From: a bacterium
GTDB taxonomy: Bacteria; UBA8248
Reading direction: 5' to 3'
Assembly (NCBI GenBank): GCA_965204535.1
Contig: OZ241996.1
Span: forward strand, 800,001 to 864,000
DNA length: 64,000 nt
Shown: positions 46,137-52,724 of the stretch, piece by piece
Position numbering within the stretch: position 1 is the stretch's first letter
Layout of the letters: each line of letters opens with the position of its first letter
Position numbers and translations under genes: made by a program
The notes under the pieces: generated by a model
Told to the model about the DNA's origin: nothing
The model's input: only the letters and a program-made list of their open reading frames with translations
Database searches by the model: none

Positions 46137-46517
46137 ATGATGACAGAAGAGAGCGAACGACCAGATTCCGAAACGTTGACGAAATCGTTATTGGACATTG
46201 CGGTGGAATCGTGGCGTTTCGGCCGACTTTTTGATCGACTGCTCATGAAACTCGATGCAGGTGAACAGGGGAGATATCATAATCATTTCCGCTGGTTTCA
46301 AAAAAAGCTCAAAGATTCTCTCACGGATGCAGGGTTATGGATTGTGAACGTTGAAGGCCAGTCCTTTGATCCGGGAATGGCAGCGACACCACTAAACATT
46401 GAAGAATTTGGATCGGAAGACGCGCTCGTTGTCGACCAGATGCTCGAACCAATAATCATGGGACCGGAAGGCGTCGTCCGGACCGGAATAGTCAAGCTCA
46501 GGAAGGTGGATTTATGA
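46137..46517 (+). CDS. Minimal GrpE-like protein
   Basis: L...GL..V..EGQSFDP....VV.QM.EP......VVRTG.V follows the GrpE C-terminal pattern; 4-bp overlap with the Hsp70 gene. Confidence 0.65.
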   Translation: MMTEESERPDSETLTKSLLDIAVESWRFGRLFDRLLMKLDAGEQGRYHNHFRWFQKKLKDSLTDAGLWIVNVEGQSFDPGMAATPLNIEEFGSEDALVVDQMLEPIIMGPEGVVRTGIVKLRKVDL

Positions 46518-49006
46518 ACAACTACGTGGGTATTGACCTGGGCACTACGAATAGTGCGATCTGCTCGTATGACGGTAATGAAACTCGTATCTGGAAGAGC
46601 ACGGAACAGAACGATGTGACGCCATCCGCGATCTACATTGATCGACGGGGAAACAAATACGTCGGCAAGCGAGCTTACGACACAGCACCTCATAGTCCAG
46701 ACAACGCCGCCACGCTGTTCAAGCGACTGATGGGGACGAGTACGCCCATCAAGCTATCGGCAGTAGACATCGTCATGAGCCCGGAGGAGTGTTCGTCGGA
46801 GATACTTCGAGTGCTTTTCGGCTACTTGCCGGAAGAACTCAGAAATGATGCTGACGTTGGCACTGTTATAACTGTACCTGCAGCATTCAACTTGATGCAG
46901 AAAAACGCCACGATGCAGGCCGCAGAGCTGGCCGGAATCGGTCGAGTCGCGCTGATGCAGGAGCCTGTGGCTGCGATTATGAGCGTCAAGAAAGCGCGCA
47001 ATGCTGATAGTATTTTTGTTGTCTATGACCTCGGCGGCGGTACATTGGATGTTGCTTTGGCGGAAAGTCTCGGGGGAAGGATCAACCTTCTCGCCCAAGG
47101 CGGGATCGCGATGTGCGGGGGAAGGGATTTCGACCGGTTACTCGTCGACAACGTGATCAAGCCGTGGTTGTTTGAAAACTTCGATCTCCCCGAGGACCTG
47201 CCGACAAATCCCATTTATAAGGCCCTGCTCCGACTGGCAGCATGGGCGGCGGAACGCGCAAAGATCGAGTTGTCGGCACGTGAGGAAGCAATCGTCAGCC
47301 TGTCTGAGACGGAAGCACGTGTGCGAGACAAGTCCGGACAGGAGGTTTATATAGACATCCCTGTAGACCGCAGCACGCTAGACCGCCTCATAGAGGAAAA
47401 GATCGAGGAATCCATTGAGGCGACAAGGGATACGCTGGAGAAAGCGGGCTTGAGTCCCCACGACGTTGAGCGCGTTGTTTTCATTGGTGGACCGACCAAC
47501 TACAAGCCATTGCGGGACAAGGTGTCTTTCGAACTCGGGATACCTACGAGCGCAGAAGTCAATCCGATGACGGCCGTTGCCGAAGGCGCCGCAATTTTCG
47601 CGGAGTCGATTGAGTGGAACTCCGAGAATCATAGCAGGAAGAGCAACCGCGGAACGCTCGCGTCGAGCGGTCCGCTTGAGCTGACCTTCAATTACACAGC
47701 GCGCACGCCAGACACGTGTTCGCAGATTGTGGTGCAAGTGGGTGGTAAGGTCATGTCGGGGACCGAGTTCCAGGTAGACAGCTTGGACACCGGTTGGACT
47801 TCCGGCCGAAAGCCCTTGGAAAACGGTGCCGCCATAGACGTGTCGCTTGCGAAGAGTGGGGAGAACACGTTCAAGGTGTTCGTGTTCGACGCAACGGGTG
47901 GTCCATTGACGCTCGAGCAGGACAAGATCGAAATCACTAGGACTGCGGCAACAGTCGACGCTATTCCGGCCTCGCATTCAATTGGAGTCGAAGTGCTGGA
48001 GAAACTTGGAGGTACGGCCACCATTGAATGGCTAGTGCGGGCCGGTGACCTGCTGCCCAAGAAAGGTGCTAAGGTATTCAAAGCTAGCGAATCTCTGAAG
48101 GCCGGGAGTACTCAAGCGCTTAGATTCAATCTCTATGAAGGTGATAGTGAGGAACCGTCCGACAATCGCTTTATTGGACGCTTGAAGATTACCGGCAACG
48201 ACTTCGAAGAAGGGGTCATACCAGCAGGAGGCGACCTCCATTGTGATTACGAAATGCTCGACTCGGGAAACATCGTGCTGGAAGTTTCTGTCCCGAGTAT
48301 TGGTGGGACCTTTCATTCGGGACGGAACTTCTACTCCCGCCAAGAGGGACAGTTCGATTTCAGCAGTGAGGCCGCCCGGGTCATTGAAGAGGGAGAAAAG
48401 ACCCGCCAACGTCTGGATGATTTCGATGAGGTTATAGACGACCCGAAACTCGAGCAAGCACGAAGGAAGCTGAATCCGGCATCGCAACTCGATGAGGACG
48501 AACCAGATATCGAGCGCGCCCAAGAAGCCATGGAAGGTGTAAACGATGCACGCCGCCTTTTAAAACAAGTTCGTGAAGATAATTTGAAGGAAATCAGGCG
48601 GATGGAGCTCAACAGTGCGACCGAGTTCTTTAACGACTGTATCCGCCAATTTGCCCGTACCAGCGAGGAGAATGGGTTCGACAATCTTGTGAGAACCGCT
48701 CAGCGTGCGATCGAACGCAACGACAAGGACTTCGAAAGTTACCTTAATGAACTGAAGGGTAAAAACTTCGGGATCCTCTGGCGACAAGACTGGTTTGTGG
48801 TGAAAAAATTCAAGTGGATGGCTACTTCACCACACCACTTCTCTGACACCGCGCGGTTCAAGGAACTGGTTTCAATGGGCCGAAACGCCCTTCAGGCCGA
48901 TGACATCGACAATCTTCGCCAGATCGTAGGACAACTCTGGCAGATTCAAATCTACACGGGATCGGACACGGACATGCTCGAAATGGCCAACATCATTCGG
49001 GGTTAG
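46514..49006 (+). CDS. Atypical Hsp70 family protein (not housekeeping DnaK)
   Basis: GIDLGTTNS, TPS, VITVPA.F, EP.AA, YDLGGGTLDV, GG.DFD, AE.AKIELS and FIGGPT; 830 aa with an insertion after the ATPase domain. Confidence 0.93.
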   Translation: MNNYVGIDLGTTNSAICSYDGNETRIWKSTEQNDVTPSAIYIDRRGNKYVGKRAYDTAPHSPDNAATLFKRLMGTSTPIKLSAVDIVMSPEECSSEILRVLFGYLPEELRNDADVGTVITVPAAFNLMQKNATMQAAELAGIGRVALMQEPVAAIMSVKKARNADSIFVVYDLGGGTLDVALAESLGGRINLLAQGGIAMCGGRDFDRLLVDNVIKPWLFENFDLPEDLPTNPIYKALLRLAAWAAERAKIELSAREEAIVSLSETEARVRDKSGQEVYIDIPVDRSTLDRLIEEKIEESIEATRDTLEKAGLSPHDVERVVFIGGPTNYKPLRDKVSFELGIPTSAEVNPMTAVAEGAAIFAESIEWNSENHSRKSNRGTLASSGPLELTFNYTARTPDTCSQIVVQVGGKVMSGTEFQVDSLDTGWTSGRKPLENGAAIDVSLAKSGENTFKVFVFDATGGPLTLEQDKIEITRTAATVDAIPASHSIGVEVLEKLGGTATIEWLVRAGDLLPKKGAKVFKASESLKAGSTQALRFNLYEGDSEEPSDNRFIGRLKITGNDFEEGVIPAGGDLHCDYEMLDSGNIVLEVSVPSIGGTFHSGRNFYSRQEGQFDFSSEAARVIEEGEKTRQRLDDFDEVIDDPKLEQARRKLNPASQLDEDEPDIERAQEAMEGVNDARRLLKQVREDNLKEIRRMELNSATEFFNDCIRQFARTSEENGFDNLVRTAQRAIERNDKDFESYLNELKGKNFGILWRQDWFVVKKFKWMATSPHHFSDTARFKELVSMGRNALQADDIDNLRQIVGQLWQIQIYTGSDTDMLEMANIIRG

Positions 49007-49008
49007 CT

Positions 49009-52071: not shown

Positions 52072-52103
52072 CTGGTACAAAGACGTAGGCTGGTGAGGAT
52101 ACG

Positions 52104-52724
52104 GTGAGCGACGAGAAGGAAAAAAAGGGATTCTCCGGGCTCTCGTCTCTTGTCTCTGACTTAGAGGAGGCTACGTCAGGTAGACAGAGCCAGATAGCAC
52201 AACGTAATACCACGCCGTCCGAGTCGCCTCACCGATCAGACCCCGGATTCGTTGCTTCGGAGTCGTCTCGGACACCAATCTCCGGCTTTTTGGGCACCAA
52301 ATGGTTTTGGAGCATGGTCGGCGTTGGTGTGCTGATATGGCTCTTCAGTGCCTTGCAAGAAGACAGTGGCAGGTCAAGCAACCTACGCACGTTCACCGAG
52401 CCGAGATCAGCGCCGAGCTACACACCGCTTGCTCCGGCATCGACACGGCAGACAGTTCTAGATTTCTCCAAACCTCCAGTTGGACAGTACAACGTGCTTT
52501 CTGTTGCGCAGATACGTTGGTGCCTTCGCGAAGTTATCCAGATTGAAGTGCTCCGACCCATGCCTACCACGAATGCTCAAATTGAAAGGTTCAACGCGGT
52601 GGTTTCGGAATACAACAGTCGTTGCAGGCGTTTTAGGTACAGGCGTGGAGCACTAGAACAGGCACGCCGAGAGGTAGAACAGCAGAGAGCGCAGATCGTC
52701 TCTAACGTGTCGCCGCCATGGTAA
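52104..52724 (+). CDS. Single-pass membrane protein, last gene of the Hsp70 operon
   Basis: GAGG RBS; TM segment WFWSMVGVGVLIWLF; C-terminal KPPVG...LS.AQIRWC...YNSRC..FRYR. Confidence 0.75.
   Translation: MSDEKEKKGFSGLSSLVSDLEEATSGRQSQIAQRNTTPSESPHRSDPGFVASESSRTPISGFLGTKWFWSMVGVGVLIWLFSALQEDSGRSSNLRTFTEPRSAPSYTPLAPASTRQTVLDFSKPPVGQYNVLSVAQIRWCLREVIQIEVLRPMPTTNAQIERFNAVVSEYNSRCRRFRYRRGALEQARREVEQQRAQIVSNVSPPW

Follow-up and report, generated by a model that had tools for sequence, protein, structure and literature searches.

A widespread, apparently undescribed mobile cassette of Hsp70, AAA+ and membrane protein genes with a possible conflict role at the bacterial cell envelope

Introduction

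In a 64,000-nucleotide stretch of the bacterial contig OZ241996.1 (assembly GCA_965204535.1, positions 800,001 to 864,000 of the forward strand; hereafter the window), five adjacent genes at positions 46137..52724 encode a GrpE-like protein, an atypical Hsp70, an AAA+ protein, a protein with a J-like start and a membrane protein. The host retains its own DnaK, GrpE and DnaJ. Bacterial DnaK derivatives have been called “dark matter,” and a 2026 review assigns almost no function to them beyond DnaK, HscA and HscC (PMC13580251). A first-pass annotation, made from the sequence alone, had proposed a self-contained Hsp70 machine that fits anti-phage defence or envelope-stress sensing better than general heat shock. 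The analysis presented here describes the five genes as a co-inherited cassette that is apparently widespread and undescribed. They are tentatively read as a mobile, private, membrane-targeted chaperone-unfoldase machine with a role in conflict, most likely against phages.

Organization and Integrity of the Cassette

The cassette consists of five co-oriented open reading frames (ORFs) on the plus strand, separated by intergenic gaps of -4, 2, 3 and 32 bp, exactly as stated in the first-pass annotation:

46137..46517, plus strand: gene 1, minimal GrpE-like protein of 126 aa; helix pair and GrpE beta domain, without the long N-terminal stalk
46514..49006, plus strand: gene 2, atypical Hsp70 of 830 aa; ATPase domain (residues 1-364) intact
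49009..50424, plus strand: gene 3, 471 aa; kinase-like N-terminal domain, a predicted pseudokinase (1-185), linker, one Cdc48/PAN-type AAA+ module and a C-terminal IGF tail
50428..52071, plus strand: gene 4, predicted adaptor of 547 aa; J-like residues 1-56 lacking the HPD motif, TPR/HEAT-like helical solenoid to residue 353, PH-like domain (355-443) and second beta domain (455-534)
52104..52724, plus strand: gene 5, single-pass membrane protein of 206 aa; N-terminal tag, disordered linker, transmembrane helix (67-85) and conserved two-cysteine outer domain, as judged from alignment and hydropathy
52122..52151, plus strand: N-terminal peptide tag (K/R)GF(S/A)GLSxL of gene 5; conserved, and shared by otherwise unrelated membrane proteins of the cassette loci

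The genes had also been described as intact, which holds true: they are identical in the public contigs of runs X1-X3, and they are under purifying selection, with ratios of nonsynonymous to synonymous substitution rates (dN/dS) of 0.02-0.09 relative to close homologues in 8 of 18 pairs, the remaining pairs being saturated in dS. In run X4, which stems from a separate study, a copy of approximately 94% identity extends across positions 45530-52785.

Co-conservation and Spread

A scan anchored on the Hsp70 returned 21 loci, two of which end at contig edges. Profile searches identified gene 1 in all 21, gene 4 in 20, the N-terminal domain of gene 3 in 18 and the outer domain of gene 5 in 15 of these loci, while tblastn detected gene 5 in 17. 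Scans anchored on gene 4 yielded five viral loci from IMG/VR and 79 metagenome loci, 78 of which were used. A check for conserved synteny, as suggested by the first-pass annotation, revealed that every gene 4 locus with at least 6.5 kb of upstream sequence (42 of 42) carries genes 1-3, i.e., the GrpE-like, Hsp70 and AAA+ genes. When clustered at 90% and 70% identity, the 106 loci that contain gene 4 collapse to 58 and 24 clusters, respectively, which means that many of them are near-duplicates; the gene 4 family as a whole comprises 1,057 clusters (50% identity) at an E-value of 1e-30. The linkage of the cassette genes is far beyond chance, and their order recurs in dozens of unrelated genomes.

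The distribution of the cassette is patchy. It was found in two of 61 related genomes (the source genome included), in three of 400 genomes drawn from the phylum of genome G061 and, by distant blastn, in one of 5,426 Escherichia coli genomes; a natural five-gene copy exists in E. coli HeN100. A search of 50,697 phage records gave no match to the cassette, and no RNA data set was listed as containing it, a result that has no bearing on expression. In a quick tree, for which the fuller search is incomplete, the window Hsp70 groups with 100% support in a clade of nine rows that spans four named phyla at 75-83% identity. Among others, the cassette travels on a Tn7-like element, on plasmids, on integrase and relaxase islands and on five IMG/VR contigs, in agreement with the mobility that had been proposed. 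Decay of the cassette and insertion of insertion sequence (IS) elements are frequent (loci L008, L009, L018 and L026). A distant form with another gene order and without the AAA+ gene is present in Sinorhizobium and Aminobacter.

The Hsp70 and Its GrpE-Like Partner

The Pfam HSP70 model matches gene 2 over residues 5-364 only (E 9e-54). Within this ATPase domain, the GIDLGTT, EP and DxGGGT motifs align and the DLGGGT pattern is found in 73 of 77 homologues. Against the canonical DnaK model, gene 2 reaches 203 bits compared with a cut-off of 648, and it is approximately 30% identical to the host DnaK, over the ATPase domain only. The linker does not directly follow the ATPase domain; instead, alignment to the host DnaK places an insert of approximately 105 aa between the two. 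The linker is followed by a divergent substrate-binding beta domain, for which a weak PDB match to an Hsp70 substrate domain was obtained (E 0.5), a long helical C-terminus and a conserved, NIIRG-like tail. In the ESM Atlas, the C-terminal half matched only unnamed or “Hsp70 family” clusters. In DnaK, Arg167, the arginine of the RIINEP motif, is the contact for the HPD motif of J-domains. At this position, gene 2 has Ala, as do 76 of 77 homologues, the remaining one having Ser.

Gene 1, for which homologues suggest a start at 46140, aligns over 75 columns to the C-terminal part of GrpE (hhalign probability 88%, E 3e-6), which supports the earlier claim that the Hsp70 has a GrpE-like partner of its own. 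The NCBIfam GrpE model matched at E 0.012, far short of its cut-off; gene 1 has no match to Pfam GrpE, was missed by the GrpE search of its own genome, and its profile found nothing in a PDB sequence search. From its sequence, gene 1 is predicted to act as a private nucleotide-exchange factor.

Gene 4, a Predicted Adaptor

The AlphaFold model of gene 4 (predicted local distance difference test score, pLDDT, of 91.5) exhibits four short helices in the order of a J-fold, followed by the solenoid and the beta region. Residues 1-56 align collinearly to J-domains, but weakly (hhalign 25%, E 8e-4, compared with 0.5% for a reversed control), and the HPD loop is missing from the alignment. The HPD motif is absent from all 144 homologues, and gene 4 has no HPE triad either; lacking HPD, gene 4 cannot be a normal J co-chaperone. 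The J-like label of the first-pass annotation can thus be kept, weakly, for residues 1-56, but not for the whole protein, which consists mostly of the helical solenoid and PH-like domains. Fold searches with the whole protein gave no J-domain row, the fold still being possible, Foldseek returned nothing at E <=0.001, and a PDB sequence search with the gene 4 profile found nothing. The PH-like region matches PH/GRAM folds, for example MTMR6 (Z 9.0), FERM (8.4) and Rtt106 (8.3).

This architecture varies among homologues. The PH-like region is present in 334 of 379 homologue rows, a redundant set; of the remaining 45 rows, some have a transmembrane anchor at the C-terminus, others a transmembrane segment plus the gene 5 domain or a second variant that looks PH-like, and others are truncated. 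Many homologues carry added zinc-ribbon heads. A single sequence, P0150, joins a DnaK-type Hsp70 (54% identical to the host DnaK) to a full gene 4 homologue and could be a natural fusion or a chimera.

Gene 3, an AAA+ Protein With a Predicted Kinase-Like Head

Among 116 homologues of gene 3, Walker A is found in 112, Walker B in 115, the aromatic pore-loop in 114, the Arg-finger in 114 and the IGF tail in 100, so that the AAA+ component is intact, as had been reported. For the AAA module, PAN, FtsH and Cdc48 gave the highest scores, and IetA a partial match.

The first-pass annotation was right about the AAA+ module but had missed the N-terminal domain, whose AlphaFold model (pLDDT 89) resembles a kinase. 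In a fold search with VIA, nearly all of the top 50 rows were kinase folds (Z 4.9-7.4; root-mean-square deviation approximately 5, and 5.2 at the best Z), and all rows listed by Foldseek were kinase folds as well (best E 1.7e-3). At the sequence level, the domain has no profile match to kinases, and hhalign scores against 13 bacterial kinases were at background; a PDB sequence search with its profile returned nothing and the ESM Atlas no usable match. Inspection of the alignment by eye identified an invariant Asp119 in LHDA, which alone resembles HRD, and found no conserved VAIK lysine, Gly-rich loop or DFG. Judging from the model, the N-terminal domain is probably a pseudokinase.

Gene 5 and the Reused Peptide Tag

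The membrane component named in the first-pass annotation is present: gene 5 has a single transmembrane helix. Its homologues add peptidoglycan-binding, OmpA or SH3 domains (Pfam). The (K/R)GF(S/A)GLSxL tag is located at the start of 103 ORFs in cassette loci, 39 of which lack the gene 5 domain; the longer ones among these 39 fall into seven BLAST groups that include a tail-anchored protein and SH3 proteins, and others are fragments. With a tag profile at 12 bits, gene 5 was the sole match in 4.9 Mb made up of control DNA and DNA of its own genome. In 39 non-redundant loci with enough flank, 29 of the 35 clusters that have the AAA+ gene carry the tag (at least two tags in eight of them), compared with none of the four that lack this gene, as scored with a profile that was built from the cassette loci themselves. 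Fusions of gene 4, a transmembrane segment and gene 5 that lack the tag occur in L006, L031 and P0251.

The PH-like domain was considered as the sole tag receptor and ruled out, as tags are retained in loci whose gene 4 terminates in a membrane anchor. Longer variants of the cassette (L027:19446-23253 and L165) are extended by an RDD-family gene, by a gene for a second tagged membrane protein and by three to four genes of unknown function.

Comparison With Named Systems

Scans with PADLOC, NCBIfam and Pfam did not name a system for the cassette, and none of them has a system model for genes 1, 4 or 5, which RefSeq labels hypothetical. Matches to PDC-M61B, JetC and ZorA in these scans were at noise level. 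No description of the cassette was found in a literature search, which covered neither subscription papers nor supplements. That the first-pass annotation did not recognize a named defence system here is borne out to that extent.

Like the DnaK-DnaJ-GrpE system (with ClpB), the cassette combines an Hsp70 whose ATPase domain retains the catalytic motifs with a beta domain of the GrpE type, a putative J-like helical segment at the start of gene 4 and an AAA+ partner. It differs in the 105-aa insert and long helical tail of the Hsp70, in the truncated GrpE and in the lack of both HPD and an Arg167 equivalent; moreover, its AAA+ protein is single-module with a predicted kinase-like head, it has membrane partners, and it is mobile and patchily distributed. 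A second point of comparison is E. coli HscC, which was reported to confer Cd2+ and UV resistance together with the tail-anchored DjlC and which measures 550-580 aa and lacks a GrpE signature (PMC8215388); DjlB and DjlC carry an HPE triad (PMC10410713). Both systems combine a specialized Hsp70 with dedicated partners of J type, in the cassette only putatively so, and some gene 4 homologues are tail-anchored like DjlC. The cassette departs from HscC-DjlB/DjlC in its 830-aa Hsp70 with a GrpE of its own, in the missing triad and in the presence of an AAA+ protein and tagged membrane proteins.

Kaur et al. (2020; PMC7159879) described GTPase-based GAP1-N2 conflict systems, mostly actinobacterial and firmicute, that use Hsp70, GrpE and DnaJ-FNIII. 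The cassette resembles them in that Hsp70 and GrpE are part of a predicted conflict operon that also encodes TPR and membrane components; its core differs by lacking GTPase, FNIII and vWA genes and by having an AAA+ protein with a predicted kinase-like head. GAP1-N2 and FNIII were found neither in the five genes nor, by Pfam at E 1e-12, in 106 scanned neighbours. Finally, the AAA module scores well against Cdc48/PAN-type unfoldases and, in part, against IetA. Identity with IetAS was ruled out, as the match is limited to the AAA module and reaches 78 of the 510 bits required, and as the cassette has no protease gene, such as that for the S8 protease of IetAS. The cassette would work like a specialized Hsp70 system, yet by these feature tests it falls outside DnaK, J-domain proteins, HscC-DjlB/C, GAP1-N2 and IetAS.

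Mobile Backbone and Defence Neighbourhood

Downstream of the cassette lies the backbone of a mobilisable island:

54182..57157, plus strand: MobF/TrwC relaxase-helicase of the mobilisable island; TrwC domain; context, outside the cassette

The cassette had been placed next to this relaxase. The relaxase is indeed near, but its most likely start at 54182 is located 1.46 kb past gene 5, with a 247-aa ORF between them. Near-full-length copies of the relaxase occur eight times in the genome, and the cassette stands beside this copy only. The fraction of guanine and cytosine (GC) is 0.533 in the cassette, compared with 0.692 in the relaxase and approximately 0.60 in the genome. The lower GC that had been claimed relative to the flanks is thus confirmed for the relaxase side but not for the left flank, where the 8 kb from 38.3 to 46.1 kb are equally low (0.534); low GC consequently marks the whole cargo zone and was ruled out as a signal specific to the cassette.

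In several named cases, the cassette is found among defence genes. In the Polaromonas plasmid pPNAP01, Zorya lies on one side of the cassette and an ATPase-helicase pair with BrxD (BREX) on the other; in E. coli HeN100, RADAR rdrB and a dptF remnant are near the cassette; and in L012, a full-length Tiamat gene (TmtA; L012:16586-22312) follows gene 5 after 63 bp on the same strand. The general premise that cargo slots of such relaxase islands are enriched in defence systems applies here only in part, as two of the seven other slots in the genome hold clear defence genes (Cas1-Cas9 and AbiE). In one region (L190:8186-12097; G000 C1 near 199-203 kb), another relaxase has Cas1 and Cas9 genes at a distance of up to 12 kb, and the same genome contains a further Cas1-Cas9 locus (L187).

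Proposed Function and Alternative Explanations

In the tentatively favoured reading, a mobile, membrane-targeted chaperone-unfoldase machine acting in conflict, gene 5 and its tagged companions would span the inner membrane with their outer domains touching the cell wall. Since tag and AAA+ gene come and go together, the tag may serve as an address label that is read by the AAA+ protein, most likely by its kinase-like head or its pore. Gene 4 would tether the Hsp70 to the same membrane site via its PH-like domains or a fused anchor, and the Hsp70, insulated from the host DnaJ, would be cycled by its own mini-GrpE. A disturbance of the envelope, such as phage injection, could act as the trigger, upon which the Hsp70 and the AAA+ protein would take hold of a membrane-bound client, either a tagged sensor or an invading protein, and unfold it or pull it out. 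As a result, entry would be blocked or the cell arrested.

Several observations favour this reading: the co-conservation, purifying selection and mobility of the genes, the defence neighbours in the named cases, a conserved core combined with variable outer modules (the periplasmic tails of gene 5 and the zinc-ribbon heads of gene 4), the co-occurrence of tag and AAA+ gene, the tagless gene 4-transmembrane-gene 5 fusions and the Hsp70-gene 4 fusion P0150. The joint loss of HPD and of its partner residue in the Hsp70 is likewise observed, as are the gene content and order, the intact ATPase motifs, the modelled domain folds and the reuse of one tag on different membrane proteins.

A number of points weigh against it. 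The J-like match of gene 4 is weak (hhalign 25%), and the kinase fold of gene 3 stays below Z 8 and lacks sequence support. The link between tag and AAA+ gene rests on four AAA-less loci, which represent approximately three events, two of them divergent, and six clusters with the AAA+ gene scored no tag, although inspection by eye reveals a degenerate tag in three of these six. None of the five genes encodes a nuclease, an NADase or a pore-forming effector, and five loci (L007, L014, L021, L022 and L025) lie among housekeeping genes. The defence neighbourhood, for which co-location had been proposed as a test, was quantified by a PADLOC scan of 174 of 175 called neighbours (at least 150 aa, from an own gene caller, at 23 loci) and of 194 of 209 control proteins from 19 of 20 random 16-kb stretches, i.e., from random DNA and not from other mobile islands. 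Counting only matches over 60% of the profile at E 1e-30, cut-offs that were set after viewing the output, 11 of 174 neighbours compared with 4 of 194 controls match defence proteins, an approximately threefold enrichment, yet with p 0.06; by locus, the counts are 10 of 23 and 4 of 19 (p 0.19). Three of the eleven matches are lone methyltransferases. A lenient count, its cut-offs likewise chosen post hoc, gave p 0.01 for proteins and 0.03 for loci. The linkage to defence is consequently modest, and a defence role is plausible but not established.

Among the alternatives, the best supported is a mobile module for envelope quality control or stress, comparable to HscC-DjlB/DjlC, in which a private Hsp70 and an unfoldase fold, insert or recycle their own membrane proteins and provide tolerance to some envelope stress without any immunity. 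Such a role is somewhat unlikely overall, though every part of the cassette is a proteostasis part, the tagged proteins are linked to the cell wall, HscC/DjlC offers a reported precedent in its Cd2+ and UV resistance (PMC8215388), and the defence enrichment is weak. However, the patchy spread, the frequent decay and IS insertion, the variable sensor-like add-ons and several placements in defence islands fit conflict better, and the host already has DnaK, GrpE and DnaJ.

It is distinctly less likely that the cassette serves the mobile element in a conflict other than with phages, by excluding conjugative elements, by removing toxins injected by competitors or by remodelling the element's own transfer machinery at the membrane. 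The location at membrane and cell wall would suit such tasks, as would the constant association with mobile DNA, here beside a relaxase. On the other hand, the carriers (a Tn7-like element, plasmids, integrase islands, relaxase islands and the five IMG/VR contigs) are unrelated, indicating that the cassette is not tied to one transfer system, and the other seven relaxase copies in the genome do without it. That the cassette has already been described under another name or in a comparative-genomics supplement is improbable: the family comprises as many as 1,057 clusters at E 1e-30 and related Hsp70-GrpE conflict neighbourhoods have been published (PMC7159879), but genes 1, 4 and 5 have no PADLOC, NCBIfam or Pfam system model and are hypothetical in RefSeq, and the literature search came up empty in a field that a recent review terms “dark matter” (PMC13580251). 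A spare general heat-shock set of DnaK, DnaJ, GrpE and ClpB, already disfavoured by the first-pass annotation, is highly improbable, as Hsp70, GrpE-like, J-like and AAA+ genes do stand together but the Hsp70 shares only some 30% with the host DnaK in the ATPase domain alone, HPD and the Arg167 equivalent are absent (144 of 144 and 77 of 77), and the AAA+ protein is of the single-module Cdc48/PAN type and not ClpB.

Returning to the conflict reading, a bolder and rather doubtful version would assign the cassette to a new class of bacterial immunity based on force exerted on proteins instead of nucleic acid cleavage or metabolite depletion, in which interchangeable cell-wall sensors would be plugged via a 10-residue tag into one private Hsp70 and pseudokinase-AAA+ machine that extracts or unfolds membrane-inserted invader proteins. 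The tag itself would then represent a targeting signal that is portable and orthogonal to the host. In any case, the cassette provides a compact, widespread and cloneable case for the poorly understood bacterial Hsp70 derivatives, with a natural copy in E. coli HeN100, and it leads to the predictions that an Hsp70 can cycle without being coupled through HPD, that an unfoldase can carry an adaptor with a kinase fold and that the peptide tag is modular. A defensive cassette would add chaperone-driven immunity at the envelope; a non-defensive one would still represent a new way to aim Hsp70 at chosen membrane proteins.

Other Features of the Window

Searches around the cassette for a promoter, a terminator or a flanking repeat gave nothing above chance, and no tRNA was found in the 64-kb window. 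Between gene 5 and the relaxase, positions 53050-53230 hold a fragment of a YAcAr/SLOG-family backbone gene, of which an intact copy is present at 58379-59338. Just upstream of the cassette, a membrane-anchored SNase-family nuclease is encoded on the minus strand (44323-45150), and SNase domains adjoin the cassette in L011, too. The 9.4-kb contig of run X4 (depth 3.75), which corresponds to window positions 43867-52785, has the cassette first and the SNase segment second, so that its order is circularly permuted with respect to the window. The contig could derive from a small circle or from a rearranged relative, or its order could have arisen during assembly; no flanking repeats were found.

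Further upstream, a HigB-like toxin and a helix-turn-helix antitoxin form a pair on the minus strand (42825-43418). A perfect 17-bp palindrome and a pair of 34-bp inverted repeats 322 bp apart, near an integrase-like remnant (42089-42505), possibly mark the end of an element. At a distance of 26-30 kb upstream of the cassette, Hachiman is encoded on the minus strand (12639-16815; HamB 12639-16064, HamA 16033-16815), along with a GmrSD-type type IV restriction enzyme on the plus strand (18392-20293); the next ORF after GmrSD (768 aa, 20717-23023) has no Pfam or PADLOC match. On the plus strand, positions 35927-38251 encode a protein of 774 aa that looks secreted, contains ankyrin repeats as well as an SH3 domain and has a repetitive C-terminus. 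On the same strand, two tandem tyrosine integrases and a third one with an arm-binding domain (26846-29190 and 33905-35266) are likely to represent the left part of a nested island.

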